The notes below the pieces were generated by a model. That model ran no database searches and was not told the origin of the DNA. It saw nothing but the letters and a program-made list of their open reading frames with translations. Made by a program: the position numbers and the translations under genes. From contig DRFS01000006.1 in assembly GCA_011050415.1 (NCBI GenBank), positions 245,539 through 309,538 of the forward strand: DNA of 64,000 nucleotides, given 5' to 3'. The DNA is from Halomonas sp. (lineage in GTDB: Bacteria > Pseudomonadota > Gammaproteobacteria > Pseudomonadales > Halomonadaceae). This document shows, piece by piece, positions 14,751 through 31,581 of this stretch; the first letter of the stretch is position 1, and each line of letters starts with the position of its first letter.

Positions 14751-16112
14751 ATGACCCATTGCTATTTTGCTGATCATGCCCTACTACCGACTGGATGGGC
14801 CTCTCAGGTGCTGTTCGAAGTCGATGCCACGGGCATGCTTACATCGGTACTGCCCAACAGCTCGCCCGGCAACGCCCAGCGCTTAGCCGGGCCAGCGCTA
14901 CCCGGTATGCCTAACCTACATTCACACGCTTTTCAGCGCGTCATGGCGGGCCTAGCAGAAGTCGGTAGCCCCCAGCCAGACAGCTTCTGGAGCTGGCGAG
15001 ACCGCATGTACGGCTTGGTTGACCGCCTGACACCGGATCAAGTGGGCACCATTGCCCAGGCGCTCTACATCGAAATGCTCAAGGGCGGCTATACGCAGGT
15101 CAGCGAATTTCATTATTTGCACCACGATGTATCGGGCCAAGCCCATAGCGATCCGGCTGAAATGGCCTGGGCGATTAGCCAAGCAGCCGATCGCAGTGGC
15201 ATTGCGCTTACCTTGCTACCGGTGCTTTACGCCCACAGCGGCTTTGGCGGCCAGCCACCCAATCATGGGCAAAGACGTTTTATCCACGCCGTACCAGATT
15301 TTTTGAAATTGCTTGAGACGTTGAAGCCAAGCTTTGCCGACCACTCCACACAGGCACTAGGCATGGCGTTTCATTCCCTGCGCGCGGTGACATTGGAAGA
15401 GATCCAGGCGGTGCTGGCGACGAACCCTGTCGGGCCACGCCACATCCATGTCGCCGAGCAGCAACGCGAAGTGGAAGACAGCCTCGCCTATTCAGGCAAA
15501 CGCCCTGTGCGCTGGCTACTGGATAACGTTGAGGTGGATGAGCGCTGGTGTTTGATCCATGCCACTCACCTAGACGACTCAGAAGTACATGACCTCGCCA
15601 CTAGCGGCGCCGTAGCGGGGCTCTGCCCGACCACCGAGGCCAATCTGGGCGACGGCATCTTCCGCGCAGTGGAGTATGCCGCCCAGGGTGGGCGTCTGGG
15701 CATTGGCTCCGACAGCCATGTCTCACTCGACGTGGTTGAAGAGCTACGCCTGCTTGAGTACGGCCAGCGCCTTGCCACCCAACAGCGCAACTGCCTGCAC
15801 AGTAGCGACATACGCCCAGTGGGCGACTGGCTTTATCGCCATGCCTTAGCGGGAGGCGCCCAAGCCTCTGGCCAACCCATCGGCGCACTCGAAGCGGGCA
15901 AGCGGGCCGATATTGTCGTTCTTGATAGCAGCGACCCCTACCTCGCCACCAGTACAGACGAAACGCGGCTAGGACGTTGGCTGTTTGGCGGCTCCAAACA
16001 ACAGATACGCGATGTCATGGTCGCAGGCCGCTGGGTTATCCAGCAGCGGCGTCACGCCCTCGATGAGGCCAACAATGCAGCGCTTGCCAAACTGTTCCGT
16101 GAGATAGGTTAA
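14751..16112 (+). CDS. hutF: Formimidoylglutamate deiminase
   Basis: PGMPNLHSHAFQR.MAGLAE, DSFWSWRDRMY, EFHYLHH, FHSLRAV, HIHVAEQ..EV, CPTTEANLGDG, IGSDSH. Confidence 0.96.
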   Translation: MTHCYFADHALLPTGWASQVLFEVDATGMLTSVLPNSSPGNAQRLAGPALPGMPNLHSHAFQRVMAGLAEVGSPQPDSFWSWRDRMYGLVDRLTPDQVGTIAQALYIEMLKGGYTQVSEFHYLHHDVSGQAHSDPAEMAWAISQAADRSGIALTLLPVLYAHSGFGGQPPNHGQRRFIHAVPDFLKLLETLKPSFADHSTQALGMAFHSLRAVTLEEIQAVLATNPVGPRHIHVAEQQREVEDSLAYSGKRPVRWLLDNVEVDERWCLIHATHLDDSEVHDLATSGAVAGLCPTTEANLGDGIFRAVEYAAQGGRLGIGSDSHVSLDVVEELRLLEYGQRLATQQRNCLHSSDIRPVGDWLYRHALAGGAQASGQPIGALEAGKRADIVVLDSSDPYLATSTDETRLGRWLFGGSKQQIRDVMVAGRWVIQQRRHALDEANNAALAKLFREIG

Positions 16113-16153: not shown

Positions 16154-16867
16154 CTACTTAGAAGAGTGCGCCATGGTGCGCAATTTATAGCGGTCACCGG
16201 GATGCAGCAGATGAGCATAGCTAATTAGGCGGTCGCCTGACCAAGTGCGCCGACGAACACTCAGGCAGGGTAGCGCAGCATCGATTTCTAGCCACTCTGC
16301 TGCACCCGCTTCTGGCAGCACCGCCTCTACCACGTGCTCCATATCGGTAATCGGGCAAGCGGCAACCAACACCTCATTGGGGGTTTGGCGATTGAAGTCT
16401 GCCTCCAAATAGCCAGGTACCCAGCGTGGATTGACGAAGCGCTCTTCGAGCTGGATCGGCTGGCCATTTTCCAGGTGAATAAGAATCGAATGAAACAACC
16501 TAGTCCCGATACGTACGCCCATCCGAAGGGCGATCTCATCGTCAGCATGCAACGCTTCGCAACTCACCACACGATTAGCGTATTCGTGGCCACGGCTGCG
16601 TACCTCATCGGCGATATTATTAATTTCGGCCAATGGCGACTCAGAGCGGCGATCCGTCACAAAGGTGCCGATCCCCGATTGGCGCACCAGATAGCCTTCC
16701 TGCACTAGGTCGCGAATGGCTTTGTTGGCCGTCATCCTGCTGACACCGAAGGTAACCGCAAGCTGCTCCTCAGGCGGGATCTTATGATCGACGGGAAAAT
16801 GACCTGTTTGGATATTATCCAGCAAGTACTGTTTGATCTGTTGATACCGGGGCGGTTGGCGTCCCAC
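16154..16867 (-). CDS. hutC: Histidine utilization repressor (GntR/UTRA), copy 1
   Basis: PRYQQIK, GVSRMTANKA, RQSGIGTFV, NIADEVRSRGH, QLEERFVNP, EHVVEA, RRTWS. GTG start. Confidence 0.9.
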   Translation of the reverse strand: MGRQPPRYQQIKQYLLDNIQTGHFPVDHKIPPEEQLAVTFGVSRMTANKAIRDLVQEGYLVRQSGIGTFVTDRRSESPLAEINNIADEVRSRGHEYANRVVSCEALHADDEIALRMGVRIGTRLFHSILIHLENGQPIQLEERFVNPRWVPGYLEADFNRQTPNEVLVAACPITDMEHVVEAVLPEAGAAEWLEIDAALPCLSVRRRTWSGDRLISYAHLLHPGDRYKLRTMAHSSK

Positions 16868-16922: not shown

Positions 16923-17519
16923 TCAAGCCCGTGGAAACAGGTCGATCCTAATCAGGCGCGTTGCAGGCAGCGTCTCAAATGTCATTATGTGACAGCTCTC
17001 GGTCGCTAACTCGTCATCAGCGCTGGGCCAGCGCCAAACATCGCCACTCTTAAGGAGCAGCGGCGGCTCACCGGCCAGCCACGCCTGCCCGTCAACGGCT
17101 AAGATAAGTGTCTCAGCGCTCGGGGCTTGCCTTAGCGACTCCCCAGACGTTAGCCAACGAACAGAAGCCTGCCAGTTTGCTGAATTGTACATTAAATTCA
17201 GCGCCCGGCTCGGCCCTTCAGGCAACAAGCAGTTCACCGCTGTTTCACCATCGAACAGGTAGCTTTCCCGTGGTGCCAAAACAGCACGCTGATCAGGCAA
17301 AACAAGTGTGACCGGATGCTCACCTATCACCGTAAAGTGACGCCTGACCCCAGCAATAATCGAGAATGGCCCCTCCCGCTCAAGTTCAGCCACCGAAACC
17401 CGCCAGCCTGGCGATTCCCCATCGCCCTTCTGGCGCGCCACTTCGCGTGTTACGCCACCGCCATTTTGCCAAGCGATGGGCAAAAGATCGGTAAAGCGTA
17501 ACCTCTCAGGCAGCTTCAT
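16923..17519 (-). CDS. hutD: HutD family protein
   Basis: WQNGGGVTREVA, WRVSVAE....GPFS...GVRR, ALNLM. Confidence 0.88.
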   Translation of the reverse strand: MKLPERLRFTDLLPIAWQNGGGVTREVARQKGDGESPGWRVSVAELEREGPFSIIAGVRRHFTVIGEHPVTLVLPDQRAVLAPRESYLFDGETAVNCLLPEGPSRALNLMYNSANWQASVRWLTSGESLRQAPSAETLILAVDGQAWLAGEPPLLLKSGDVWRWPSADDELATESCHIMTFETLPATRLIRIDLFPRA

Positions 17520-17532
17520 TGATGGCTCCTCA

Positions 17533-18504
17533 TCAGGATGCAGCGGCCTTGCGGTAGCTCATCGAGGCATCAATGCGGCCCAAGATGTAGTCACCCGCGG
17601 CTACTGGCGGATAGTGAGCTTCTGCTGCTGAGACACCAAGGTCGGCAGGATCAACGAGAGCCGTATAGTCGGGGTCATAGAAGGTCGCGATGGAGTAGCG
17701 TTCCCGGCCACTGGTATTGATGACCCGGTGCAGCGTCGAGCGAAAACGATCATTAGACCATCGCGCTAATAGATCGCCGACATTAACCACCAGCGAGCCC
17801 TCAATAAAAGGCGCATCAATCCAGCGCTCGCTACCCAGCTCGCGCACCTGCAAACCACCCACCGCATCCTGGTAGAGTAGCGTCACACAGCCATAATCGG
17901 TATGCGGGGCAACGCCAAATTGGTCCATCGGCCGATCGTCAGACTGAACGGGGTAATAGACCGCCTGAGTGCGTTGTAACGGCTTGGTATATTTAGCTGC
18001 AAAGAATTCAGGGTCGATCTCTAAGCTCATCGCAATAGCACGCAGCAGATCCGCGCCACAGCGGCCTACCTCCACAAAGTAGCGATCCATTGCTTGCTGG
18101 AATTCGGGCATAAAGTCCGGCCACTGGTTCGGTCCCCGTAGCGCTTCACCCGCCAGCACGCTCGGGTCATCCTCGGCCAGATCCAACCCAAAGCCATAGA
18201 ACTCCTTCTCATCGGGCCGGGTGGCCTGATACATCGTCGCCCCACCACGGCGATGAAAACCCCGGTGGCGTTTATTGACCGCCACCTGCGCCTTGCGCTC
18301 AAGCGGCTCAGCAAAGAAGCGCTGGGCGACCTCCATGGCATCGTCTATCACCGCCTGGGGAAGACCATGATTGATAATGTAGAAGAAGCCCACCTGGGTG
18401 CAGGCGTTATGTATCGCCTCACCAGCCCGAGCGAGAGCTTCAGCGTCACCCTCCCGTACGCCCTGCATATCCACAACAGGAATGTTCGTAGCTGAGTTAC
18501 TCAT
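17533..18504 (-). CDS. Fe(II)/2-oxoglutarate dioxygenase, isopenicillin N synthase-like (DIOX_N + 2OG-FeII_Oxy)
   Basis: IPVVDM, ACTQVGFFYIINHG, PNQWP, HTDYG (HxD), VVNVGDLL.RWSND.FRSTLHRV, RYS. Confidence 0.92.
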   Translation of the reverse strand: MSNSATNIPVVDMQGVREGDAEALARAGEAIHNACTQVGFFYIINHGLPQAVIDDAMEVAQRFFAEPLERKAQVAVNKRHRGFHRRGGATMYQATRPDEKEFYGFGLDLAEDDPSVLAGEALRGPNQWPDFMPEFQQAMDRYFVEVGRCGADLLRAIAMSLEIDPEFFAAKYTKPLQRTQAVYYPVQSDDRPMDQFGVAPHTDYGCVTLLYQDAVGGLQVRELGSERWIDAPFIEGSLVVNVGDLLARWSNDRFRSTLHRVINTSGRERYSIATFYDPDYTALVDPADLGVSAAEAHYPPVAAGDYILGRIDASMSYRKAAAS

Positions 18505-18599: not shown

Positions 18600-18615
18600 T
18601 GCAATGCGCGTGCCA
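18600..18615 (-). promoter_or_regulatory. Sigma-54 (-24/-12) promoter for the dioxygenase-hutD-hutC unit
   Basis: Minus strand TGGCAC-GCGCA-TTGCA, an exact match to TGGCAC-N5-TTGCW, about 95 bp upstream of the ATG at 18504. Confidence 0.75.
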
Positions 18616-18645: not shown

Positions 18646-18655
18646 AGTATATACA
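18646..18655. promoter_or_regulatory. HutC operator candidate upstream of the IPNS-like dioxygenase
   Basis: AGTATATACA, one mismatch to TGTATATACA, 30 bp from the sigma-54 site. Confidence 0.55.
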
Positions 18656-18845: not shown

Positions 18846-18855
18846 TGTATATACA
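18846..18855. promoter_or_regulatory. HutC operator candidate upstream of hutH
   Basis: Perfect TGTATATACA about 75 bp before the hutH ATG. Confidence 0.8.
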
Positions 18856-18929: not shown

Positions 18930-20462
18930 ATGACATCGATACAACGACTCTCACCAGGCCAACTAACGCTTGCGACACTGCGCGAGCTTTTTGAGGGCAG
19001 CCCTACTATCGAGCTCGACGACGAGAGCCGCGCCAGGGTCGATCGTGCCGAAGCTACGGTTAGCGCCATTCTCGACAGCGGCCGTACCGTTTACGGTATT
19101 AATACCGGCTTTGGCGTGCTGGCCCAAACCTCCATACCACGCGATTCGCTGACCGAGCTGCAGCGTAACTTGGTGCTGTCGCACAGCACCGGGGTCGGTG
19201 ACAATCTGGATGACGCCACCGTGGGGATGATTCTGGCGCTCAAAGCGACGTCGCTGGCCCGTGGCCACTCCGGCGTCCGCTGGCTGATTATTGAAAGCCT
19301 ATTGGCGCTTTACAATGCGCGGGTCTATCCCTGCATTCCTGCCAAGGGCTCGGTTGGCGCCTCGGGGGATCTAGCGCCACTGGCGCATATGGCGGCCACC
19401 CTGCTCGGCGAAGGCCGCATGCGTCATCAAGGACGAGAGATGCCCGCCAGTGAGGGGCTGGCCCTGGCCGGTATCGAGCCGCTTACGCTGGCACCCAAGG
19501 AGGGGCTGGCACTGATCAACGGCACCCAGGTATCCACCGCTCTGGCGCTACGCGGGCTGTTCGCCACCGAGAAACTATTCACCGCAGCCGTGGTGGCAGG
19601 CAGTCTGTCGGTGGATGCATTGAAGGGCTCAGATACCCCGTTTGACGAGCGCATTCAGGCCGTTCGCGGCCACCCCGGTCAGCGTGATGTCGCCGCTTTC
19701 TACCGCGAGCTGCTAGCGGGCAGCCGGGTGCGCGAATCCCACCGCGACTGCCCGCGGGTTCAGGATCCCTACTCACTGCGCTGCCAGCCCCAGGTGATGG
19801 GCGCCTGTCTGGACCACTTGCGCTTTGCGGCGGGCGTATTTCTGCGTGAGGCCAACGCCGTTTCCGATAACCCGCTGGTGTTCGATAATGGTGATGTGCT
19901 TTCTGGCGGTAACTTCCATGCGGAGCCGGTAGCGATGGCCGCCGATGTACTGGCGCTGGTGATCTCAGAAATCGGCGCCTTGTCGGAGCGCCGCATCGCC
20001 CAATTGGTCGATCCAGCGCTATCCGGCTTGCCCGCCTTTCTAGTGACGGAGAGCGGGCTCAACTCCGGCTTTATGATCGCCCAGGTCAGCGCCGCCGCCC
20101 TGGCGTCCGAGAACAAAACTCTGGCCCATCCGGCTTCGGTAGATAGCTTACCGACCTCTGCCAATCAAGAAGACCACGTCTCCATGGCCACCTTCGCCGC
20201 AAGGCGCTTGGCCGATATGGCGTTTAACTCCAGCGCCGTGGTCGCCATTGAGCTGCTGGCAGCGGCCCAAGGGGTCGAATTTCATCGCCCCATGACCTCC
20301 TCAGTCGCCCTCGAGGAAGCGTTAGCGACCATACGCCGCGACGTGGCACGTTATGAGCGGGACCGCTACTTCGCCCCCGACCTGGTAGCCGCCCAGCGCT
20401 TCGTCAGCGACGCTGTCTTCGAGACGCTACTGCCCCGTTCACGGCTCTACGCTGAAGGTTGA
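18930..20462 (+). CDS. hutH: Histidine ammonia-lyase (canonical, MIO-forming)
   Basis: [36 protein letters not shown] (ASG intact), [39 protein letters not shown]. Confidence 0.97.
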
Positions 20463-20524
20463 TATGAAACGACACTGCGCCTGCCGCTAACCACCAACGC
20501 GAAGCCGAACGAGCGAGATTGATC

Positions 20525-21913
20525 ATGATTTCCAGCCACACAGCCGACCATCTCTTTCTTAAAACACTAAAAGATATGCTTGGCGACAGCGTGCTGTTGG
20601 GCGAAGAGATTCCTGCGTCCTGCTTCAGCGATTGGACAGGCCATGCTGCCTGCCGACCGCTGGCACTGGTACGCCCAGCTACCACTGAAGAGGTTGCCAG
20701 CCTGCTACGACTGTGCAATGAACACCGCCGCCCGGTGGTGCCCCAGGGAGGAATGACCGGCTTGGCGGGCGCGGCGGTGCCCAGTGCCGATAGCATCGCA
20801 ATATCGCTTGGTCGACTAACCGGTGTCGAGAGCGTCGATGGCGATGCCGCTACCCTGACGGTGCGCGCGGGCACCACACTACAAACCGTCCAGGATGCGG
20901 CTGAAGAGGCAGGTTTTCGCTACCCGGTCGATTTTGGCGCCCGGGGAACGTGCCAAATCGGCGGTAACATCGCGACCAATGCCGGTGGCCATGGGGTGAT
21001 TCGTCACGGCATGACCCGCGACCAGGTGCTCGGCCTGGAGGTGGTACTCGCGGATGGCCGGATTCTCGACTTGATGAACGGCATGATCAAGAACAATACC
21101 GGCTACGACCTTAAGCACTGCTTTATCGGCGCCGAAGGCACCCTGGGCATTATCACCCGCGCCGTGCTGCGTCTGGCGCCTCCCAAGGGTGAAACCCATA
21201 CGTTTTTGTGCGGGCTGCCCAACTATCCGGCGGCTGTTGCGTTACTCCACCGGTTACGCGGTGCTGGGCTGGCGCTAGAGGCATTTGAAGTGATGTGGCA
21301 GGACTTTTACACCATGAGCTGTGGCTGGCGAGACGGCCAGTCACCGCTGCACACAAGCCACCCTATTTACCTGCTGTGCGAGGCAGAGGGCGCAGCCAGC
21401 CATCTGGAGGCTGCCCTGGAAAGCGCGCTGGCAAGCGGCGAGGTGGAAGATGCGGTACTGGCTGGCAGCAGTACATAAGCCCGCGAATTATGGGCTATCC
21501 GTGAGGCGACCGGCGAATTTCCGCTCAAGCTGGCACCCATCAACTTTGATATCAGCCTGCCGGTTGCCACGATCGGCGCCTTTGTCGAAGACGCCAGCAA
21601 AATGCTCACTCAGCGCTGGCCGGACATCCGCATTGTCAATTTTGGCCATATCGGCGACTGCAATCTACACCTAACCGTGGATGGCCAGTCCCTGGCCGAG
21701 GATACCGCCGAGACTCGCCATGCTATCGAAGCGGAGGTCTATCGCCTGGTCGGTGACTATAGCGGTTCGATCTCTGCCGAGCACGGCATTGGCCTGCTCA
21801 AGCGCGATTTCTTACACCACAGTGTCCACCCCGAAGCGCTGGACGTTATGCGCTCGCTCAAACATACCCTGGACCCTAACGGCATCCTCAATCCGGGCAA
21901 GCTATTCGGTTAA
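20525..21913 (+). pseudogene. FAD-linked oxidoreductase (D-2-hydroxyacid dehydrogenase / GlcD-like) interrupted by an in-frame TAA at 21476-21478
   Basis: ORFs 20519-21478 and 21602-21913 share a frame. Reading through TAA gives ...AGSST*ARELWAIREATGEFPLKLAPINFDISLPV...FGHIGDCNLH...SISAEHGIG...DPNGILNPGK, about 463 aa, with PQGGMTGL, GGNIATNAGG, NTGYDL, GAEGTLGIIT. Confidence 0.85.
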
Positions 21914-22010
21914 GTCGCTCACCTTAGCCGCCCTTATAGGCGGGCCGGTACGCACCCAAACTGTGCAGGCTGTAGTTAGCTATTTCACGCCTAAATCTGC
22001 AAAACCATTA

Positions 22011-22020
22011 TGTATATACA
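22011..22020. promoter_or_regulatory. HutC operator candidate upstream of the amino acid ABC operon
   Basis: Perfect TGTATATACA, 14 bp upstream of a sigma-54 site. Confidence 0.8.
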
Positions 22021-22033
22021 GGTAAGTACTTTT

Positions 22034-22049
22034 TGGCACACCGTTTGCT
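22034..22049 (+). promoter_or_regulatory. Sigma-54 (-24/-12) promoter for the ABC operon
   Basis: TGGCAC-ACCGT-TTGCT, exact consensus spacing. Confidence 0.78.
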
Positions 22050-22113
22050 TTTAGATAACTGACGTTCCGAATCGCTGCAGTGCTGATACGCACTATCAGC
22101 CACGCCGCTAGCC

Positions 22114-22168
22114 CTAGCACTATCGCACCTAGCACTATCGCATCTAGCACTATCTCACCTAGCCCTAT
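22114..22168 (+). repeat. 15-bp tandem repeat in the 5' leader of the ABC operon
   Basis: CTAGCACTATCGCAC CTAGCACTATCGCAT CTAGCACTATCTCAC CTAGCCCTAT, ending at the GGAG RBS. Confidence 0.85.
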
Positions 22169-22182
22169 GGAGTCATTACTCG

Positions 22183-23016
22183 ATGAACAAATCCACGCTG
22201 CTTAACCGGTCACTCTCCCAGCTAACTTTAGGCCTTGGCCTCTGCTTAGCGATCTCCAACGCCTCTGCAGACCTGCTTGATGAGGTTAAAGAGCGGGGTG
22301 TACTCAATGTTGGCACTGAGTTTCACTTCGCGCCCTTCGCTTATTTAGATGCGGGCCAGCAGAGTGGTTTAAACCTTGAGCTTATGGAGCGTGTTGGTGA
22401 CGAATTAGGGATCACGATTAACTGGATCGACTTACCCTGGCCCAGCGTACTCCCCGGCCTTGAGGCGGGTAATTACGACTTTGTTGCAGGCCCCGCGATG
22501 ATTACCCAAGAGCGCAAACTACGCTACAACTTCACCTTGCCTATCGCCGATGCCACTGTCGCTATCCTCAAGCGCGCTGACGACGACTCTATTCAAACCC
22601 CCGAAGATATTTCTGGCAAAGCTGCCGGGGGCGGCCGCGGTACCGCACAGCTTGAACAGCTAAAGGCATTTGCCGCTGAGCTGCCGGATCCGCCGACTAT
22701 TACCGAGTATGTGGACTACAGCCAAACCTACGCCGACCTGGCCGCTGGGCGTATCGATGCTGTCGCCAACTCGCTACCCAATATTGCTTATACGGCGACT
22801 CAGCGCCCGATGTTTGAAGTTGTCCTTCCCCCCTTTGGCCAACCTGCCTACTTCGGCTATATGGCGCGTAACGATGAAGAATCCGCATCACTGGTTGATG
22901 CCATCAACGAGGTGCTTCTATACATGCACGAAGATGGCAGCCTCTCCGAGCTGCAAACCAAGTGGTTCGGCGCGCCGATGGATGTTCCCAGCGAAGATTT
23001 TGAGCCCGCAATCTAA
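22183..23016 (+). CDS. Polar amino acid ABC transporter substrate-binding protein
   Basis: Signal peptide; L..VKERGVL.VG.E.hFAPF, WPSVLPGLEAGNYDFV, ITQERK, DLAAGRIDAV, GSLSELQTKWFG. Confidence 0.92.
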   Translation: MNKSTLLNRSLSQLTLGLGLCLAISNASADLLDEVKERGVLNVGTEFHFAPFAYLDAGQQSGLNLELMERVGDELGITINWIDLPWPSVLPGLEAGNYDFVAGPAMITQERKLRYNFTLPIADATVAILKRADDDSIQTPEDISGKAAGGGRGTAQLEQLKAFAAELPDPPTITEYVDYSQTYADLAAGRIDAVANSLPNIAYTATQRPMFEVVLPPFGQPAYFGYMARNDEESASLVDAINEVLLYMHEDGSLSELQTKWFGAPMDVPSEDFEPAI

Positions 23017-23028
23017 GCTACCTTCAAT

Positions 23029-23066
23029 GCGTGCTGGGCGACAGTTGCGTAGGCCGCCCAGCACGC
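23029..23066 (+). other. Intercistronic stem-loop after the SBP gene
   Basis: 12-bp perfect stem GCGTGCTGGGCG / CGCCCAGCACGC; this position is typical of mRNA-stabilising hairpins in ABC operons. Confidence 0.6.
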
Positions 23067-23093
23067 CCTCCCTCACCTTAAGGGATACTGCCA

Positions 23094-23753
23094 ATGTTCG
23101 ACTGGCCGACGCTTCTTTTTAGCCTGCCACTGCTGGGTAAGGCACTCCTGATCACGCTCCAGACGTCACTGTTAGGCAATGCCATTGGCTTTGTTATCGG
23201 CACCCTGATTGCCAGCATGCAGTTGGCCAAAATGCCTTTGCTGCGCCGTCTCGGCGGCAGCTATATCTTTATCTTTCGAGGGGTACCACTGCTCGTCCAG
23301 CTACTGGTTATCTACTACTTGGCCCCCATGTTCGGGCTACCCAACCTATCCCCCATGGTGGCCGCGGTGATGGCACTCTCGCTCTGTTCAGGCGCTTATA
23401 TCGCCGAAATATTACGCGGCGGGCTATTGGCGATCCCCTCTGGTCAGCGTGAAGCGGCCCACTTACTCGGTATGAGTCGCCCCGCTATTTTGCTACGCAT
23501 CGAGCTGCCCCAGGCGGTTCAAAGCACCCTCCCTTCACTGGTAAACGAGCTGGTACTGCTGATTAAGGCCTCGGCGTTGGTGTCAGTCGTCGGCCTGGCG
23601 GACCTTACCCGGGTGGCTCAAAACCTGGCCTCTTCAGACTACTTATTTTTCCAGCACTACCTGGTACTGGCAGGGATCTACTGCCTGATCAACATACCGT
23701 TGACCATGTTCGGGCGCCGACTTGAGCGTCACCTAGAGAGGAGTCTGGCGTGA
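23094..23753 (+). CDS. Amino acid ABC transporter permease
   Basis: FRGVPLLVQL, AYIAEILRGG..AIPSGQREAA..LGM, LIKASALVSVVG. Confidence 0.93.
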   Translation: MFDWPTLLFSLPLLGKALLITLQTSLLGNAIGFVIGTLIASMQLAKMPLLRRLGGSYIFIFRGVPLLVQLLVIYYLAPMFGLPNLSPMVAAVMALSLCSGAYIAEILRGGLLAIPSGQREAAHLLGMSRPAILLRIELPQAVQSTLPSLVNELVLLIKASALVSVVGLADLTRVAQNLASSDYLFFQHYLVLAGIYCLINIPLTMFGRRLERHLERSLA

Positions 23754-24412
23754 TTTTCGATCTATCAATTATTACCGCCAATGCCGACGCCATCTGGAGC
23801 GCTTTTTTAGTCACCATTTATACCTGGCTGGTGGGCAGCGTATTGGGGTTGGTAACGGGACTATTGATTGCTGCGCTGATGCTCTTTGGCGGTCGGCCAC
23901 TGCAGCTCATATTGAGAGTGTTTATTGAGCTGGTACGCGGCACCCCGTTTTTGGTGATCCTGTTTCTGGTCTACTACGGCGGCCCGTCATTCGGTCTACG
24001 TCTCGGCGCGATTACCGCTGGGGTGCTCTGCATCGCTTTCTACAGCAGCGTCTATTTCGCGGAGATTTTTCGTAGCGGCTTCGCCGCCGTCCCCCGCGGG
24101 CAACTGGAAGCTGGCGAGTGCCTGGGACTAGGTCGCCTGCAACTTATGTGGCGCGTACAGCTGCCCCAAATGCTGGTACTGATCCTGCCAGCCATCGTCA
24201 ATATGCTGACAATTCTATGCAAAGAGACCGCTGTCCTGTCGATTATCACCGTCCCTGAGCTAACCGCGGTGCTCACCGGTATTGGTACCCGCACCTTCAC
24301 TTTTATTGAAACGCTATTGGTTCTCTGCATCGCCTACCTACTGCTTATCGAAATCACCTCGCGGGTGGGCAGGTGGCTTGAGCACCGCGTCGGCACCTAC
24401 TTACAGCGCTGA
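23750..24412 (+). CDS. Amino acid ABC transporter permease
   Basis: [50 protein letters not shown] start overlapping the upstream stop. Confidence 0.93.
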
Positions 24413-24425
24413 ACAGGAGCTAGCT

Positions 24426-25310
24426 ATGCCGCTTTCCCTATCTTCGTCCACATCTACCCCTGCTGCGGCTTTGGTCGAAGCTACGCAAAAAGGGGGTGAT
24501 AAGGCGTCCCCCATTATCCATCTCTCCGCCGTCGGCAAGCGTTTCGGCGAGCATCAAGTACTCACTGATATCAACCTTGATGTGCATCACTCGGAGGTCG
24601 TCTGCCTGATTGGCCCATCGGGGTCGGGTAAAAGTACGCTGCTGCGCAGCATGGCCTTTCTTGAGGAGTATGACGAAGGGGAGATCCATATCGAGGGGCG
24701 CCTACTCGGCTGGGAAATCGATGACCGGGGGCGCCGCCAGCACGCCGGACGCAACCGCCTCAATCAGGCCCGGCGCAACCTGGGCATCGTCTTTCAGCAG
24801 TTCAACCTGTGGCCACATATGACAGCGCTGGGCAATGTCACCGAGGCCCTGGTAAGAGTGCGTAGGCTAAAGCGCAGCGAAGCTGAAAAGCGCGCCATGG
24901 AGGTGCTCGACAAGGTTGGCCTGGCCGAGAAGGCCAAGGAGTACCCAGCGCGACTTTCCGGCGGCCAACAGCAGCGCGTGGCCATTGCCCGGGCACTGGC
25001 CATGGAACCCAAGATTATGCTCTTCGATGAGCCTACCTCAGCACTCGACCCTGAACTGGTGGGCGAGGTATTGGCGGTGATGAAGCAGCTCGCTCTTGAA
25101 GGCATGACCATGGTGGTAGTGACCCACGAGATGGGCTTTGCCGCTCAAGTCGCTGATACCGTTGTGTTCCTTGATCAAGGCAGCATCGTCACCCGTGGCA
25201 CGCCCAGTGAAGTATTCCGCGACACTCAGCACCCTCGCCTTCGTCAGTTTTTACAGAATTACCTGGATCGCAACGCCTTCTGGAATACCACTCCGGAGCT
25301 GGAAAACTAA
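24426..25310 (+). CDS. Amino acid ABC transporter ATP-binding protein
   Basis: [59 protein letters not shown]. Start set at ATG 24426 behind a CAGGAG RBS. Confidence 0.94.
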
Positions 25311-26461
25311 TGCTGCCTATCGACCCCACTCCCCTGGCACGCCGCGAAGTGCGCGAGCTTGAAAGCTACAATGCTGGGCTCTCCAGTGAACAGGTAAGCA
25401 AGCGCTTTGGCATCTCAAAGATTGCCAAGCTAGGCAGCAATGAGAACCCCTATGGCCCCTCTCCCCTGGTAGCCACCGCTATCTCAAACGCCATTAGCGA
25501 TAGCGGCCTTTATCCCGACGCCTCCTGTGGGCTATTACGCGATTTGCTGGCGGTGCGCCTTGGGGTTGCGCCCGAACAGCTGGTGTTTGGTAATGGCTCG
25601 GAAGATCTGATTGCGATTTTGTGCCGGGTGTTTCTCGACCACGGCGATAACTTAGTCACCGTCACCCCCGCCTTCGGTCTGCACACCCTATACCCCCACT
25701 CACTGGGGGCGAAGATTCGCGCGGTGCCCATGCTGGAGGGAGGCAGTTTTGACATTGACGGGCTGATTGAGGCGCTTAGTGAGCCGCCACGTATGCTGAT
25801 GTTCTCATCCCCCTCCAATCCGGTTGGTAGCGCACTATCGGCAAGCCAGTTAAAGCAGTTGCTTGAGGTGCTAACCCCCGCCACTCTATTAGTCTTCGAT
25901 GAGGCCTATTATGAGTACGCTCAGGGCAGCCCCGGCTATCCGGATGTGCTGGCTCGGCTATCCCTACAGCAGACGCCATGGATCGTTTTACGCACCTTCT
26001 CAAAAGCCTATGCGCTGGCCGGTTTACGTGTGGGCTATGGCATTGCCAGCAGCCCAGCGCTGGCCGATCTTATCGATCGCCTCCGCACGCCGTTTAACGT
26101 TAACCGCCTTGCTCAAGTAGCTGCACTAGCAGCGCTGCAGGATGAGGCCCACCTCAAGGCTGGGCTTGAAGCGACCATTCGCGAACGCGAGCGGGTTGCC
26201 AAGGCGCTTCACGAGATGCACCTGACGGTAGTGCCTTCTCTGACTAATTTCCTGTTTTTCAAAACGGATCAAGCATCCGATAGCGTGCATGAAGCACTGC
26301 TGAGCCACGGCGTAATTGTTAAACCCTGGCGCGAGCCAGGCTATCGCCACTGGCTGCGCGTCTCAATCGGCAGCCGCGAGCAGAATGATCAATTTCTTAC
26401 CGCGCTTTCGGAAACTCTTCAGCCCGCGCCAGCACCCTTTGCTCACGACGATACTCCCTGA
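25310..26461 (+). CDS. hisC: Histidinol-phosphate/aromatic aminotransferase (HisC family, PLP)
   Basis: KLGSNENPYGPSP, GNGSED, SPSNPVG, DEAYYEY, RTFSKAYALAGLRVGY. Translationally coupled (TAATG) to the ABC ATPase; its role may be catabolic. Confidence 0.85.
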   Translation: MLPIDPTPLARREVRELESYNAGLSSEQVSKRFGISKIAKLGSNENPYGPSPLVATAISNAISDSGLYPDASCGLLRDLLAVRLGVAPEQLVFGNGSEDLIAILCRVFLDHGDNLVTVTPAFGLHTLYPHSLGAKIRAVPMLEGGSFDIDGLIEALSEPPRMLMFSSPSNPVGSALSASQLKQLLEVLTPATLLVFDEAYYEYAQGSPGYPDVLARLSLQQTPWIVLRTFSKAYALAGLRVGYGIASSPALADLIDRLRTPFNVNRLAQVAALAALQDEAHLKAGLEATIRERERVAKALHEMHLTVVPSLTNFLFFKTDQASDSVHEALLSHGVIVKPWREPGYRHWLRVSIGSREQNDQFLTALSETLQPAPAPFAHDDTP

Positions 26462-26500
26462 CATAGATAACTCAACTCTCTAAATAAGGCGGCTAACCCA

Positions 26501-27316
26501 ATGGCAACTCCCAACCCCAATGTCACTGTAAATGATGCGGAGATCGAGGCTTTTCAACGCGAAGGCGCCGTGGTACTACGTGGCCTTTTTAACGATTGGA
26601 TGGAGCCACTACGTGAAGGAGTTGATACGCTGATTGCATCGCCCAGCCCTCTGGAGCGCTCCTATCAGCCCAGTGATGGCTCGGCACCGTTCTTTCAGGA
26701 CCTATGCAACTGGCAGCGCATTGAGCCTTTTTCACGCTTTGTGATGGAATCTTCTATTGCGGAGCTAGCTTGCAAACTAATGGGCTCACGACAGGCACAG
26801 TTCTTTCACGACCACGTACTTGTCAAAGAGCCCGGCTCCTCGCAAGTGACCCCCTGGCATCAGGATCAGCCCTATTATTGTGTTGAGAGTACGCAGTGCA
26901 TTAGTTTTTGGATCCCACTAGATCCCGTGGCATGTGAGACTTCCCTAAAATGTATTGCAGGGTCACATCACTGGAACAAACTTCACCGCCCCAAGCGCTT
27001 TGACGGCAGTGATCTTTATCAAGGAGATACGCGTGAAGAGCTACCGGATATTGATGTCGACCCTTCTCAGTACCGCATCCTGCAATGGGCTTTAGAACCT
27101 GGCGACGCCGTCGCTTTTGATTTCCGCACCGTTCATGGTGCTTCTGCCAACACCTCCAGCCATCGTCGCAGGGTGTTCTCCGCGCGTTGGTTAGGTGACA
27201 ATGCCCGCTTTGTTGACCGGGGTGGCAAAGGGTCTCCACCCTTTGCCCATCTCACCTTACAAAATGGCGATCTATTAACAGGGCCTGAGTTCCCCATTGT
27301 CTATCAGCACCCCTAG
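26501..27316 (+). CDS. Phytanoyl-CoA dioxygenase (PhyH)-family Fe(II)/2OG dioxygenase
   Basis: FQREGAVVLRGLF, KEPG....TPWHQD (HxD), WIPLD, GSHHW, GDAVAF.FRTVHGA..N....RRRVFS.RW. Confidence 0.9.
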   Translation: MATPNPNVTVNDAEIEAFQREGAVVLRGLFNDWMEPLREGVDTLIASPSPLERSYQPSDGSAPFFQDLCNWQRIEPFSRFVMESSIAELACKLMGSRQAQFFHDHVLVKEPGSSQVTPWHQDQPYYCVESTQCISFWIPLDPVACETSLKCIAGSHHWNKLHRPKRFDGSDLYQGDTREELPDIDVDPSQYRILQWALEPGDAVAFDFRTVHGASANTSSHRRRVFSARWLGDNARFVDRGGKGSPPFAHLTLQNGDLLTGPEFPIVYQHP

Positions 27317-27352: not shown

Positions 27353-28108
27353 ATGAAGAAAACCGATACCGATAGCGTCACCGCACCAAAAGCACTCTAT
27401 TTACAGGCCAAGCAGTTTGTACTGGAGCGCACCGCCTCGGGCTTCTGGAAGCCTGGCGATATGATTCCATCTGAAAATCAACTCGTTAACGAACTCGGCA
27501 TGTCACGCATGACGATTAATCGAGCACTACGGGAGCTAACCAGCGAGGGCTACTTAGAGCGTACCAGCGGCGTAGGTACCTTTATTGCTGAGCGCAAACC
27601 ACACTCCAACTTGCTGCAAATAGCCAATATTGCCGATGAGATCATCTCCCGGGGCCACCGTTACCACTGTGAAGTACTCGAACTCGGTCGTGTTGCGGCG
27701 CCGTTCGCTATTGCCTCAGCACTTGAGCTCACCACCGGCAGCTCGGTTTATCACCTGCGCTGTGTTCACTATGAGGAAGATCTCGCCGTCCAGCTCGAGG
27801 ATCGTTACGTTTCGCCCACCATGGCGCCCGATTTTATTCACCAGCGCTTTGATGACACGCTGCAACCTTCGCGCTACCTACTCAATACTATCCCGGTAGA
27901 CGAAATAGAGCACATCGTCGACGCGCTACTGCCCTCGGAAGAAGATGCTAAAGCGCTGGATATCGACACAAACGAGCCCTGTTTAGCACTGATGCGCCGC
28001 ACTTGGAGTGCTTCTCGGGTGGTTACTTACGTTAAGTTTCTGCACCCCTCCATGCGCTATCGGCTGGGAAGCCGCTACTCCGTTGATGCCACCTCCCATG
28101 CGGGCTGA
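27353..28108 (+). CDS. hutC: Histidine utilization repressor (GntR/UTRA), copy 2
   Basis: LYLQAKQ, IPSENQLV.ELGMSRMTINRALREL, GVGTFIAE, NIADEI.SRGH, QLEDRYV, EHIVDA, RRTWS. Confidence 0.88.
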   Translation: MKKTDTDSVTAPKALYLQAKQFVLERTASGFWKPGDMIPSENQLVNELGMSRMTINRALRELTSEGYLERTSGVGTFIAERKPHSNLLQIANIADEIISRGHRYHCEVLELGRVAAPFAIASALELTTGSSVYHLRCVHYEEDLAVQLEDRYVSPTMAPDFIHQRFDDTLQPSRYLLNTIPVDEIEHIVDALLPSEEDAKALDIDTNEPCLALMRRTWSASRVVTYVKFLHPSMRYRLGSRYSVDATSHAG

Positions 28109-28266: not shown

Positions 28267-29160
28267 ATGAACCGCAATGTCATTCTTACCTGTGCCGTGA
28301 CTGGTGCGGGTGATACCACCGCTAAGAATCCTAATGTCCCGATTACCCCCAAGGCTATCGCAGCTTCCTGCATTGAAGCTGCCCACGCCGGGGCCAGCAT
28401 CGCGCATATCCATGTTCGCGATCCGCAAACCGGCGGCATTAGCCACTCGACTGAGCACTTTCGCGAAGTGATGGAACGTGTCCGCGAAGCGGATGTGGAT
28501 ATCGTGATGAACATCACCGCTGGCGGTGGCGGCGACTGGATACCCGATGCCGCAGACCCTACCCGAGGTGGCCCAGGCACAGACATTCAAACACCAGCAG
28601 AACGCCACGCGCCGGTCGGCGAACTCCTTCCCGAGCTTTGTACGCTGGACTGCGGCAGCCTCAACTTTGGCGATATGGTCTACGTGAACCCAGCGGACTG
28701 GCTGCGCGAGCACGCCCGCCTGGTGCAAGCCGCAGGCGTTAAGCCAGAACTGGAGTGCTTTGACCTGGGCCACGTCTGGTTTGCCCGCCAGCTTCAGCAA
28801 GAGGGCCTTATCGACGGAGACCCACTCTATCAACTCTGCCTGGGCATTCCCTGGGGCGCAGAAGCCGATACCGAAACCATGCTGGCGATGCGCAACAAAT
28901 TACCTGCCAACGCTAACTGGGCGGCCTTCGGCATTGGTCGTCATCAAATGCCTATGGTTGCCCAGGCGGTGCTGCTCGGCGGTCACGCCCGTGTTGGCTT
29001 GGAAGATAACCTGTTTTTAGAGAAAGGCGTGTTGGCCAACAACGGCCAACTGGTCGAAAAAGCCTCAACCATTATCGAGAATCTCGGCGCCCGGGTAATG
29101 ACCCCCGCTGAAACCCGCGCCCATCTCAACCTGCGTAACCCGGCAGGAGGTGACGCATGA
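28267..29160 (+). CDS. cdhC: 3-keto-5-aminohexanoate cleavage (BKACE) family protein; 3-dehydrocarnitine cleavage enzyme by context
   Basis: [55 protein letters not shown]; sits ahead of carnitine dehydrogenase. Confidence 0.88.
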
Positions 29161-30110
29161 GCCGCTTAGCCGTGATTGGTACTGGCGTGATTGGCAACGG
29201 CTGGATTGCCCGCGCCCTCGCCCAAGGCTGGGATGTGGTCGCCTTCGACCCCGCACCTGAAGCGCCAGCACGCACCCGCACGTTTATCGAAAACGCCTGG
29301 CCCTCGTTAACCCAGCTCGGCCTAGCGTCCGATGCGAGCCCTGAGCGACTATCGTTTGTGGCCACCATAGATGAGGCGGTGAGCGACGCCGATCTGGTTC
29401 AGGAGAACGTGCCTGAGCGCCTTGAGCTTAAACAACAGATCTTAGCCACCATTGATGCCGCGGCTGCACCGAATATCATCATTGGCTCGTCTACCTCAGG
29501 CTTTAAGCCCACCGACCTGCAGCAGCAGTGCCAACAATCACCTGGGCGTGTGATCGTCGCTCATCCCTTCAACCCAGTCTATTTACTACCGCTGGTGGAG
29601 CTTGTGGGTGGTGAAGCCACCCAACCCGCACAGATTGCCACCGCCCAGGCGCTTTACCAGTCATTAGCCATGCGCCCCTTGGTCGTTCGGCGTGAAATTG
29701 AGGGTCATATCGCCGACCGCTTGATGGAAGCGTTATGGCGGGAAGCCCTGCATTTGGTCAATGATGGCGTGGCGACTACTGAAGAGATCGACGCGGCGGT
29801 GGTTTATGGCTGCGGCTTACGCTGGCCATTAATGGGCACCTTCTTAACCTTCCACTTAGCGGGCGGCGAGCCTGGCATGCGCCATATGCTGGAACAGTTT
29901 GGCCCGGCGTTAAAACTTCCCTGGACCAAATTGGAAGCCCCGGAACTCACCGACGAGTTGATCGACAAAGTGGTCGAGGGGTGTGAGCATCAAGCAGCGG
30001 GGCGTTCAGTGGCAACGCTCGACCGGCGCCGAGATGACTTTTTAGTCGAGCTGCTCGAGGTGGTGCAAAAATATTGGCCGGAAGCCGAAGGCCTTAAGGG
30101 GCGCATCTAA
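29157..30110 (+). CDS. lcdH: L-carnitine 3-dehydrogenase
   Basis: [99 protein letters not shown]. Confidence 0.9.
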
Positions 30111-30565
30111 TGATTATCCATGAAACCCAGGTGGCTCCGGAGTGGGTCGACTACAACGGACACATGAACGACGCGGAGTACGCCCGCGTCTTCTCTCAGG
30201 CCTGTGATGCCCTTATTGAACATATCGGGCTGGATGACGCAGGCCGTGAACAACACGGCTACACGATTTATACGCTGGAAACCCACCTCTGCTATCGCCG
30301 GGAGGCGCACCAAGGGCAGTTGTTAAGCGTGGATTTAACCCTGCTCGATAGCGATGCAAAACGTCTGCACGTGTTTTTCGCCATGTTGGATGAGGAGAGC
30401 AACCTCCTGGCAACCAGCGAACAGATGCTTATGGGTATTGAAAAAGCGTCTGGCCGCCCAGGCCCCTTCCCTGAAGCAATTGCTAGCGCGGTGGCAGCGC
30501 TACCCCAGGTTGATAGCGATGCATGGCCTGAGCTTGCTGGCCGAACCATCGGTATACGGCGCTAG
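30110..30565 (+). CDS. cdhB: Hotdog-fold thioesterase (betainyl-CoA thioesterase by context)
   Basis: WVDYNGHMNDAEY, YTLETHLCY..E, D.KRLHVF, ATSEQMLM. Confidence 0.8.
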   Translation: MIIHETQVAPEWVDYNGHMNDAEYARVFSQACDALIEHIGLDDAGREQHGYTIYTLETHLCYRREAHQGQLLSVDLTLLDSDAKRLHVFFAMLDEESNLLATSEQMLMGIEKASGRPGPFPEAIASAVAALPQVDSDAWPELAGRTIGIRR

Positions 30566-30612
30566 GCGGCACACCCCAGTAGTCCACCTGCGATGCCCTG
30601 CCGAGGCCACCA

Positions 30613-31581
30613 CTAATCGGTTGGGGCACGCACCGCCCGAGGCGAGTAACCATAATAGCCGCGAAACGCACGTGCAAAGCTTGATGACGAACTAAATCCA
30701 CAGGCAATGCCCACCGCCAATACGGCTAAATCAGTCTCTGCCAGCAATCGCCTGGCTCGCTTAAGGCGTAGCTGTAAGTACCACTGGCGTGGTGTTGCCG
30801 ATAACTCCTGCTCAAACAAACGCTGTAACTGGCGGACCGACACATTGATACGACTCGCCACCTCTTCAAGCGTAAGCGGCTCTTCAAGGTTCTGTTCCAT
30901 CAACGCCACCGCCTCAATCACGCGCCGATTGTGGCTACCCAAACGTTTGACCAGTGCCATACGCTGCTGGTCGCTGCGGGTGCGAATACGGTCATGAATA
31001 AGCTGCTCAGAGACATCAATGGCCAGCTTATCCCCATGTCGCCGAGCGATCACTTCCAGCGCCATATCCATCGCCGCCGCCCCGCCCGCGCAGGAGAAGC
31101 GCCGCTCACCTAACTCATAAAGCTCATCGGTAGTATCAATGCCCGGAAAGCGCTCACGAAAGGCGGGCAGACTCTCCCAGTGCAGCGCCACCCGCTCGTG
31201 CTTTAATAACCCGGTGGCGGCGAGCAGAAATGCCCCGGTATCAATGCCTCCCAAACAGCAGCCTGCCTGATCTAACTGATGCAGCCAGGCCATTAACGGC
31301 CGGGTAAGATGCGCCTCTGGGGTGAAGCCGCTGCATACCGCCAGCGAGGGCATATGGTGAAGATCCGCCGTTGCGTGATCAGCCATTAGCGTCATACCGT
31401 TGGACGCCGTCACTGGCTCGCCATCCGCGCTAATCAAGATCCAGTCAAACAGAGGGCGATTAGCAATACGATTTGCAATCCGCAACGGTTCAACCGCCGC
31501 GAAAAACGCCATCATGGAAAACTGCGGCAACAGTAAAAACCCCACCATTTCTGGCAAAGGGCCCTGGTAACTAAGACGCAT
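30613..31581 (-). CDS. GlxA-family AraC transcriptional regulator (CdhR/GbdR-like)
   Basis: FSMMAFFAAVEPLRIANR, GGIDTGAF.LA, HWE, CAGGAAAMDM, MEQNLEEPL, RQLQRLF, CGFSS.SSF.RAFR. Confidence 0.9.
   Translation of the reverse strand: MRLSYQGPLPEMVGFLLLPQFSMMAFFAAVEPLRIANRIANRPLFDWILISADGEPVTASNGMTLMADHATADLHHMPSLAVCSGFTPEAHLTRPLMAWLHQLDQAGCCLGGIDTGAFLLAATGLLKHERVALHWESLPAFRERFPGIDTTDELYELGERRFSCAGGAAAMDMALEVIARRHGDKLAIDVSEQLIHDRIRTRSDQQRMALVKRLGSHNRRVIEAVALMEQNLEEPLTLEEVASRINVSVRQLQRLFEQELSATPRQWYLQLRLKRARRLLAETDLAVLAVGIACGFSSSSSFARAFRGYYGYSPRAVRAPTD

Follow-up and report, generated by a model that had tools for sequence, protein, structure and literature searches.

An accessory, partly decayed module of the Hut regulon in a Halomonas strain as a candidate salvage route from imidazole-lactate to histidine

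Introduction

The locus considered here raises the question of why histidine-utilisation (hut) genes stand next to, and share HutC operators with, genes for a 2-hydroxyacid dehydrogenase, an ATP-binding cassette (ABC) importer and a HisC-family aminotransferase. It lies in a 64-kb window (the whole stretch of DNA that was analysed, from contig DRFS01000006.1 of Halomonas sp., a marine bacterium of the Halomonadaceae), of which positions 11093-31581 were annotated. The genes most likely belong to an accessory Hut-regulon module that spans 17.5-28.1 kb of the window and that would, with a probability somewhat better than even, make histidine for catabolism from imidazole-lactate or imidazole-pyruvate taken up from outside, and perhaps from imidazole-propionate too. 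An earlier note on this DNA had proposed the path from imidazole-lactate through imidazole-pyruvate and L-histidine to urocanate; this is still the most economical account of the genes, which are found together in altered order in distant bacteria, but the entry step is dead in this strain. All the elements that the note described are in place: a GlcD/D-2-hydroxyacid-dehydrogenase-like gene follows hutH at 20525-21913, the ATG of the HisC-family aminotransferase gene overlaps by one base (TAATG) the TAA of the ATPase gene of an importer operon with a HutC box at 22011-22020, and no his biosynthesis gene occurs in the annotated stretch, which holds hut and carnitine genes. Its gene list left out two Fe(II)/2-oxoglutarate (2OG) oxygenases, one IPNS-like and one of the PhyH family, as well as a sigma-54-type promoter and a second HutC.

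From a biochemical standpoint, imidazole-lactate oxidation and the transamination that links histidine and imidazole-pyruvate became known around 1970. Coote and Hassall (Biochem J 1969, 1973) reportedly found imidazolyl-L-lactate and imidazolylpropionate to be degraded via histidine in Pseudomonas (Comamonas) testosteroni and P. (Delftia) acidovorans, and the title of the 1973 paper names imidazolylpropionate as well. The earlier note, which knew of no described pathway with this combination, is to be corrected on this point. The searched literature yielded no gene assignments for the catabolism of imidazole-lactate, -pyruvate or -propionate, and to our knowledge aerobic imidazole-propionate catabolism has never been assigned to genes; the chemistry is thus already known, while the genes appear unassigned. 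On the reading preferred here, the module is a genetic variant, so far without annotation, of a salvage route whose biochemistry is known, and it is partly decayed in this strain.

Gene order and the proposed route

The genes of the locus, by window coordinates, are the following.

12810-14489, minus strand: hutU
14751-16112, plus strand: hutF
16154-16867, minus strand: hutC1, canonical histidine-utilisation repressor (TIGR02018, 287 bits, cut-off 220)
16923-17519, minus strand: hutD (PF05962 HutD, 2.6e-28)
17533-18504, minus strand: IPNS-like Fe(II)/2OG oxygenase, divergent from hutH (DIOX_N and 2OG-FeII_Oxy domains; HTD...H and RYS motifs)
18930-20462, plus strand: hutH, histidine ammonia-lyase (TIGR01225, 683 bits, cut-off 539)
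20464-20490, plus strand: 5' relic of a gene for a flavin mononucleotide (FMN)-dependent L-2-hydroxyacid dehydrogenase (8 codons, then a stop)
20525-21913, plus strand: pseudogene of a flavin adenine dinucleotide (FAD)-linked D-2-hydroxyacid dehydrogenase of the D2HGDH/GlcD family (FAD_binding_4 and FAD-oxidase_C)
22183-23016, plus strand: periplasmic substrate-binding protein (SBP), SBP_bac_3 (PF00497), 'AVANSLPN' subfamily
23094-23753 and 23750-24412, plus strand: two ABC permeases (BPD_transp_1), overlapping by 4 nt
24426-25310, plus strand: ABC ATPase (ABC_tran; ATG at 24426 preceded by AGGAG)
25310-26461, plus strand: HisC-family class I/II aminotransferase (PF00155)
26501-27316, plus strand: PhyH-family Fe(II)/2OG dioxygenase (PF05721)
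27353-28108, plus strand: hutC2, second HutC-family repressor and last gene of the operon (TIGR02018, 282 bits, cut-off 220)

For comparison, 80 loci were listed for each of three queries (the aminotransferase, the PhyH protein and the IPNS-like oxygenase), 240 in all, and the window proteins were mapped onto them; as these loci are the matches listed per query, neither absence nor a patchy distribution of the aminotransferase can be argued from them. The nearest loci among those compared belong to Vreelandella sedimenti (L001), Halomonas ventosae (L002) and Halomonas sp. AOP13-D3-9, with 78-99% amino acid identity per gene. At the other extreme stands Komagataeibacter xylinus, where the same families occur in rearranged form: ATPase, permease, SBP and PhyH genes on one strand, the aminotransferase, FAD dehydrogenase, hutD and IPNS-like oxygenase genes on the other, and then the FMN dehydrogenase gene, hutH, hutU and hutC. 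A gene set that is kept through rearrangement across classes is strong evidence that its genes work together.

The hutH of the window is a HutH by the TIGR01225 equivalog and carries the Ala-Ser-Gly triad that forms the 4-methylidene-imidazole-5-one (MIO) group, in GASGDL at residues 143-148. It is 74-76% identical to the hutH found inside the accessory module of Pseudomonas and 59-60% identical to the hutH of the Pseudomonas main locus (L009-L011). By these identities it is the orthologue of the Pseudomonas module's own hutH, and it seems to be the only canonical histidase within the hut region of this Halomonas.

From the observed gene content, mutations, conserved synteny, conserved operators and residue substitutions, the following route may be proposed, in which every substrate and reaction is a predicted one. 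The ABC importer would take up imidazole-lactate or imidazole-pyruvate, possibly imidazole-propionate; the FMN-dependent L- and FAD-dependent D-2-hydroxyacid dehydrogenases would oxidise either enantiomer of imidazole-lactate to imidazole-pyruvate; the HisC-like aminotransferase, which belongs to an aryl-pyruvate branch, would make L-histidine from imidazole-pyruvate, with glutamate as the proposed amino donor; and the module's HutH would yield urocanate, which feeds HutU-I-F-G. If the product of the transamination is the substrate of the adjacent HutH, the 2-oxo acid can only be imidazole-pyruvate, and the D- and L-specific flavin dehydrogenases placed upstream of imidazole-pyruvate then indicate imidazole-lactate. 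The further suggestion of the earlier note, that a ketoacid derived from D-histidine could be recycled by the same genes, finds no support in the locus, which contains neither a D-amino-acid dehydrogenase nor a racemase.

The HisC-like aminotransferase

The aminotransferase scores above the HisC cut-off of TIGR01141 (296.5 against 276.55 bits), so that automatic annotation would call it hisC, and falls below that of the HisC2-type NF003496/PRK05166 (500.3 against 540 bits); the lysine that binds pyridoxal phosphate (PLP) lies within a TFSKAY motif. It shares with HisC/HisC2 (PRK05166) the fold, the PLP lysine motif and membership by hidden Markov model, whereas, unlike them, it sits in a catabolic, HutC-controlled context.

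Among its listed homologues of at least 43% identity, hut genes occur within 10 kb in 48 of 58 loci, and an FAD and/or FMN 2-hydroxyacid dehydrogenase stands beside the gene in 34 of the 58; for the more distant homologues the corresponding counts are 0/22 and 1/22. The hut-linked clade spans the Gamma-, Beta- and Alphaproteobacteria and the Acidobacteria, with members in Halomonas, Pseudomonas, Marinomonas, Vibrio, Celerinatantimonas, Variovorax/Pseudorhodoferax, acetic acid bacteria, Steroidobacteraceae and Bryobacteraceae. The distant relatives without hut genes adjoin DAHP synthase, prephenate dehydrogenase, aroA or indolepyruvate oxidoreductase genes, and this aromatic context indicates that the clade derives from aryl-pyruvate enzymes; Bacillus hisC, like the nearest non-hut relatives, also sits in an aromatic amino acid cluster.

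The two 2-hydroxyacid dehydrogenases and their loss

The FAD dehydrogenase gene is a single open frame (20525-21913) interrupted by a lone in-frame TAA at 21476-21478, a position occupied by Gln in 8/8 aligned homologues from Halomonas to Komagataeibacter. The product is 84% identical to the intact V. sedimenti (L001) orthologue, and the values across the compared relatives (84/75/78%) mark these as true orthologues. Contigs from four public sequencing runs (3 samples, 2 studies, word depth 78-767) show zero differences from the window across the FAD-dehydrogenase region, so the TAA is present in the DNA, with the caveats that contigs hide rare variants and that the samples may hold one strain. 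A sequencing or assembly error as the source of the TAA was accordingly rejected, since the same codon appears in the contigs of all four high-depth runs.

The FMN enzyme has been lost in another way. An FMN_dh gene (PF01070) lies between hutH and the FAD dehydrogenase gene in all Halomonas relatives from the aminotransferase loci and in nearly all Pseudomonas, with no FMN_dh match in a few Pseudomonas loci and in those of Vreelandella olivaria. In the window just 62 bp separate the two genes: about 1.3 kb of L001 (3985-5287) have no counterpart at the DNA level, and the relic at 20464-20490 aligns to the start of the FMN_dh gene of L001-L003. Two independent events have thus deprived this lineage of both hydroxyacid dehydrogenases, namely deletion of the FMN gene and a nonsense codon in the FAD gene, and the hydroxyacid entry step is genetically dead in this strain. 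The importer, aminotransferase, PhyH dioxygenase and HutC2 are intact; the remaining module genes are full length, and their pattern of divergence is that seen among the three relatives, so that nothing points to more extensive decay. The idea that the aminotransferase is under relaxed selection in this lineage was rejected, since it and the FAD dehydrogenase show faster evolution in each of the four Halomonas genomes set side by side.

Neither enzyme falls into the equivalog families of the best-known 2-hydroxyacid dehydrogenases. Against the GlcD model TIGR00387 (cut-off 567.9) the window fragment scores 167 bits and the intact L001 orthologue 250 bits, and the FMN orthologue of L007 stays below the LldD models (NF033901, 306 against 550 bits; PRK11197, 333 against 376 bits). 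The best solved relatives of the FAD dehydrogenase are 3pm9 (4e-90) and human D2HGDH (6lpn, 2e-82), which have the same two domains and the same catalytic His/Glu motifs. Residues R386, T390 and K401 of human D2HGDH are those that we take to bind the distal carboxylate of D-2-hydroxyglutarate, their numbering having been fitted to the 6lpn alignment. R386 is kept in all hut-linked copies (window, Halomonas and Pseudomonas), where T390 is replaced by Gly and K401 by Asn; 3pm9, in contrast, has Ser and Lys at these two positions. With two of the three presumed distal-carboxylate residues changed, the enzyme departs from D-2-hydroxyglutarate dehydrogenases, and its substrate is probably a D-2-hydroxyacid other than D-2-hydroxyglutarate.

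Regulation of the module

The regulatory elements of the module are given below.

18601-18615, minus strand: sigma-54-type promoter facing the oxygenase-hutD-hutC1 unit
18646-18655, minus strand: HutC box with 1 mismatch, upstream of the oxygenase-hutD-hutC1 unit
18846-18855: HutC box upstream of hutH, exact TGTATATACA
22011-22020, plus strand: HutC box TGTATATACA of the importer operon, 163 bp upstream of the SBP start
22034-22048, plus strand: sigma-54-type -24/-12 promoter of the importer operon, TGGCAC-N5-TTGC, downstream of the 22011-22020 box

The window holds four exact copies and one one-mismatch copy of the HutC-type box, all within promoter regions: two between hutU and hutF, two between the oxygenase gene and hutH, and one upstream of the SBP gene. 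Five boxes compare with 1.0 expected in the window, and 0/100 shuffles reach five; this enrichment, together with the sigma-54-type promoters, makes the regulatory observation real, beyond chance. The box ahead of hutH is kept in the Halomonas and Pseudomonas relatives, and a box ahead of the importer or aminotransferase operon is kept in Halomonas, Pseudomonas, Marinomonas, Vibrio and Komagataeibacter. Both repressors carry GntR helix-turn-helix and UTRA domains and exceed the TIGR02018 cut-off, and they are 40% identical to each other. Orthologues of hutC2 (63-67% identity in Pseudomonas) close the module in 63 of the 80 listed oxygenase loci. The module is probably under Hut control by way of the HutC boxes and a HutC paralogue of its own, with transcription from a sigma-54-type promoter.

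As a separate observation, a 15-bp unit CCTAGCACTATCGCA is present in 3.7 tandem copies at 22113-22168, within the leader that runs from the sigma-54-type promoter to the start of the SBP gene.

The conserved core and the nature of the acid

When the 80 listed loci of the IPNS-like oxygenase are considered, the importer is found in 65, the FAD dehydrogenase and a HutC2-like repressor in 63 each and the FMN dehydrogenase in 36. Many Pseudomonas, one Xanthomonas and many Paraburkholderia have these genes without the aminotransferase and hutH, operator-like boxes being retained. As judged from these loci, the conserved core is formed by the IPNS-like oxygenase, the FAD dehydrogenase, the importer and the HutC paralogue, with the aminotransferase and hutH as accessory members whose work could be taken over by general enzymes. 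It is proposed that the oxygenase hydroxylates an imidazole acid. It is a more constant partner of the importer and the FAD dehydrogenase than the aminotransferase is, and this composition of the core points to imidazole-propionate as a possible upstream substrate. A tentative extension, which we regard as possible but rather doubtful, is that the core (oxygenase, FAD dehydrogenase with or without the FMN enzyme, 'AVANSLPN' importer and HutC paralogue) forms the genetic basis of aerobic imidazole-propionate (dihydrourocanate) catabolism. The oxygenase would then alpha-hydroxylate imidazole-propionate to imidazole-lactate, from which the flavoenzymes would give imidazole-pyruvate, a HisC-like or general aminotransferase L-histidine, and HutH urocanate.

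Further conserved neighbours were sought in the aminotransferase-less clusters, and these yielded only a uvrB-linked aminotransferase (22 loci) and MFS and SDR genes. The former is a class I/II aminotransferase (398 amino acids) encoded directly after the oxygenase gene and beside uvrB, at L174:11055-12251 and in 21 further Pseudomonas-type loci that lack the HisC-like enzyme; it is probably a matter of chromosomal context, but it could supply the transamination.

The composition of the core also bears on whether the acid is an imidazole compound at all. The module might instead handle other 2-hydroxy or 2-oxo acids (phenyl-, 4-hydroxyphenyl- or indole-lactate, or an aliphatic acid). In that case the aminotransferase would yield an amino acid other than histidine, and paralogy, with no tie to histidine, would account for the HutC-like regulator and its boxes. 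Most core clusters do lack hutH and the HisC-like aminotransferase, the distant relatives of the latter serve aromatic amino acid metabolism, and the FAD dehydrogenase, a D2HGDH-family enzyme, could have such a specificity. This explanation is nevertheless unlikely, because the amino-acid-processing enzyme in the cluster, where there is one, is in every case a histidine ammonia-lyase whose MIO motif is intact, hut linkage of the aminotransferase clade extends over four phyla or classes, the operator is identical to the TGTATATACA that stands ahead of hutU, hutF and hutH, and no aromatic catabolic genes were seen adjoining the module.

The PhyH-family oxygenase

The second oxygenase is a clear member of the PhyH family (PF05721, 92.9 against 22 bits) and has the HxD...H iron triad. 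Its closest PDB entry is MysH (1e-32), with which its WHQDQ and TVHGA motifs align and which alpha-hydroxylates an N-linked glycyl group, hydrolysis then following. The gene is an optional insert between the aminotransferase gene and hutC2, missing from H. ventosae and from every Pseudomonas cluster. Of the 80 loci listed for this query, about 25 show hut linkage of the orthologue, mostly without the aminotransferase and dehydrogenases and with varied transporters nearby. The protein probably serves as an independent entry point for some other histidine derivative.

In a second alternative to the imidazole-lactate route, the imported compound would be an N-alpha-substituted histidine (methylated, carboxyalkylated or betaine-type), dealkylated by the Fe(II)/2OG oxygenases to histidine or imidazole-pyruvate, with the aminotransferase recovering the keto acid. 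The reaction of MysH, the hut linkage of PhyH orthologues without the aminotransferase and dehydrogenases in many Alphaproteobacteria, and the fact that the transporter parts score best, if under cut-off, against the ectoine system are all consistent with it. The conservation of both D- and L-2-hydroxyacid dehydrogenases would be left unexplained, however, and the PhyH gene is an optional part of the module, so that this explanation is distinctly unlikely.

Two side observations concern hut-associated oxygenases elsewhere. PhyH orthologues of 47-68% identity stand beside hutU/H/I/F/G and HutC-like genes in many Alpha- and Betaproteobacteria (L088, L096, L104, L111, L112, L114, L117-L119, L121-L123, L133, L149 and L150, the PhyH gene mostly at about 10001-10800); they often adjoin SBP_bac_5 or NMT1-type ABC systems and form a separate hut-associated oxygenase family. 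In Marinomonas colpomeniae (L044:4436-6402), a HalD/BesD-family Fe(II)/2OG enzyme and an AstE/AspA-type amidohydrolase replace both dehydrogenases upstream of the importer, the former being a third oxygenase family attached to the importer/aminotransferase pair.

The importer and the remaining alternatives

The importer has the architecture, the family and the carboxylate-binding Arg of polar amino acid importers such as GlnHPQ, HisJQMP, ArtJ and EhuABCD, and reaches no equivalog cut-off. The best NCBIfam matches of the permeases are EhuC/EhuD and TcyL, every one under its cut-off, and the Ehu equivalogs give EhuA 315 against 345, EhuB 54 against 191, EhuC 143 against 197 and EhuD 137 against 205 bits.

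In binding proteins of this kind, R75 of E. coli GlnBP binds the alpha-carboxylate of the ligand, and D157 (HisJ D161) its alpha-ammonium group. In the GlnBP sequence used here, the established ligand contacts sit where their numbering predicts. Aligned to it, the SBP keeps the Arg (R75 corresponds to R111), while H156-D157 correspond to N196-S197. Unlike GlnHPQ/HisJQMP-type binders, this subfamily therefore has Asn-Ser in place of the ammonium-binding Asp, and the SBP departs from the amino-acid-binding pattern of the PAAT family. The AVANSLPN motif is invariant in 9 SBP orthologues (45-92% identity) and is found in 117 of the best 120 database homologues, which carry generic names only. The substitution is suggestive of a ligand with a carboxylate but without an alpha-amino group.

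A plainer explanation would make the ABC system an L-histidine importer of the hut locus, and the aminotransferase and dehydrogenase unrelated passengers. It would suit a polar-amino-acid ABC family with a HutC box in a hut region that shows no other dedicated histidine importer besides a BCCT carrier. It is quite improbable, given that the SBP subfamily lacks the alpha-ammonium-binding Asp throughout, that the ATPase stop and aminotransferase start codons overlap, and that the tight, order-independent linkage with dehydrogenases, oxygenase and aminotransferase across classes is unlike that of passengers. As to the view that the aminotransferase is the housekeeping histidinol-phosphate aminotransferase (hisC), by chance beside hut genes, it is very improbable despite the TIGR01141 score and the lack of a second HisC-like sequence anywhere in the 64-kb window or in any compared locus, since the gene is the fifth of a HutC-boxed, repressor-controlled catabolic operon (an unlikely home for a biosynthetic gene), is missing from the orthologous cluster of L174 and from 35 further importer-bearing oxygenase loci, and belongs to a clade that is hut-linked and never his-linked in the 58 listed loci.

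Several points weigh against the imidazole-lactate route itself. The aminotransferase and hutH are each present in only 28 of the 80 listed oxygenase loci, so the core is not strictly tied to histidine, and in Marinomonas colpomeniae the importer and aminotransferase occur without either dehydrogenase nearby. The loss of the Asp in the SBP is suggestive only, and, as the hut locus shows no other obvious L-histidine importer, histidine may be taken up by this ABC system. Finally, the classical imidazolyl-lactate dehydrogenase (EC 1.1.1.111) was NAD(P)-linked and not a flavoenzyme.

Relation to known systems

The classical route, with imidazolyl-lactate dehydrogenase (EC 1.1.1.111) and histidine:2-oxoglutarate aminotransferase (EC 2.6.1.38) as its enzymes, has the same chemistry as the one proposed here, is likewise followed by the five-step Hut pathway and is reportedly co-induced with Hut. 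In the module, by contrast, oxidation would fall to an FMN L-type and an FAD D-type flavoenzyme, and genes for an ABC importer, for a HutC paralogue and for Fe(II)/2OG oxygenases come in addition. With the canonical Hut system of Pseudomonas (hutC, hutU, hutH, hutI, hutF, hutG and hutD) the locus shares the repressor family, the operator TGTATATACA and a true MIO histidase, and hutU, hutF, hutD and hutC flank the module; the textbook Hut regulon, however, has no aminotransferase, 2-hydroxyacid dehydrogenase, Fe(II)/2OG oxygenase or second HutC.

A mechanistic analogy, and only that, is offered by the CsiD-LhgO system, in which an Fe(II)/2OG-dependent glutarate hydroxylase is followed by an FAD-dependent L-2-hydroxyglutarate oxidase under the GntR-family regulator CsiR (PMC5974017, PMC6265302, PMC6667623). 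As would be the case in the core, a 2OG oxygenase alpha-hydroxylates an acid, a flavin 2-hydroxyacid dehydrogenase gives the 2-oxo acid, and the repressor is of GntR type; the two differ in oxygenase fold (CsiD/TauD-like versus IPNS-like), in dehydrogenase (LhgO versus a VAO/D2HGDH-type enzyme) and in substrate.

The module supplies candidate genes for imidazole-lactate oxidation and imidazole-pyruvate transamination that databases name generically, and it is found in many Pseudomonas, Paraburkholderia, Halomonadaceae and acetic acid bacteria, including many soil, plant-associated and marine Proteobacteria. Were the imidazole-propionate version true, aerobic bacteria would use the module to remove a microbial product that has been associated with type 2 diabetes. 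For annotation, the locus serves as a warning that the automatic name hisC can hide an enzyme of HutC-controlled catabolism, and this strain, with its two independent inactivating events, documents a first stage of module decay.

Neighbouring genes

hutD accompanies the IPNS-like oxygenase gene both in Halomonas (oxygenase-hutD-hutC1) and in Komagataeibacter (aminotransferase-FAD dehydrogenase-hutD-oxygenase; L024:12521-13111), which hints at a functional tie between HutD and the module. In Paraburkholderia (L206, L208, L213-L215, L217, L223, L225, L228 and L229) the core module adjoins a second unit, made up of an ABC system, a histidine-lyase paralogue (38-40% identity to hutH) and a HutC-like gene (43-44%). 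In the window itself, hutC2 is directly followed, at 28267-31581, by carnitine catabolism genes, which encode a BKACE enzyme, L-carnitine dehydrogenase, a thioesterase-like domain protein and a GbdR/CdhR-like regulator.

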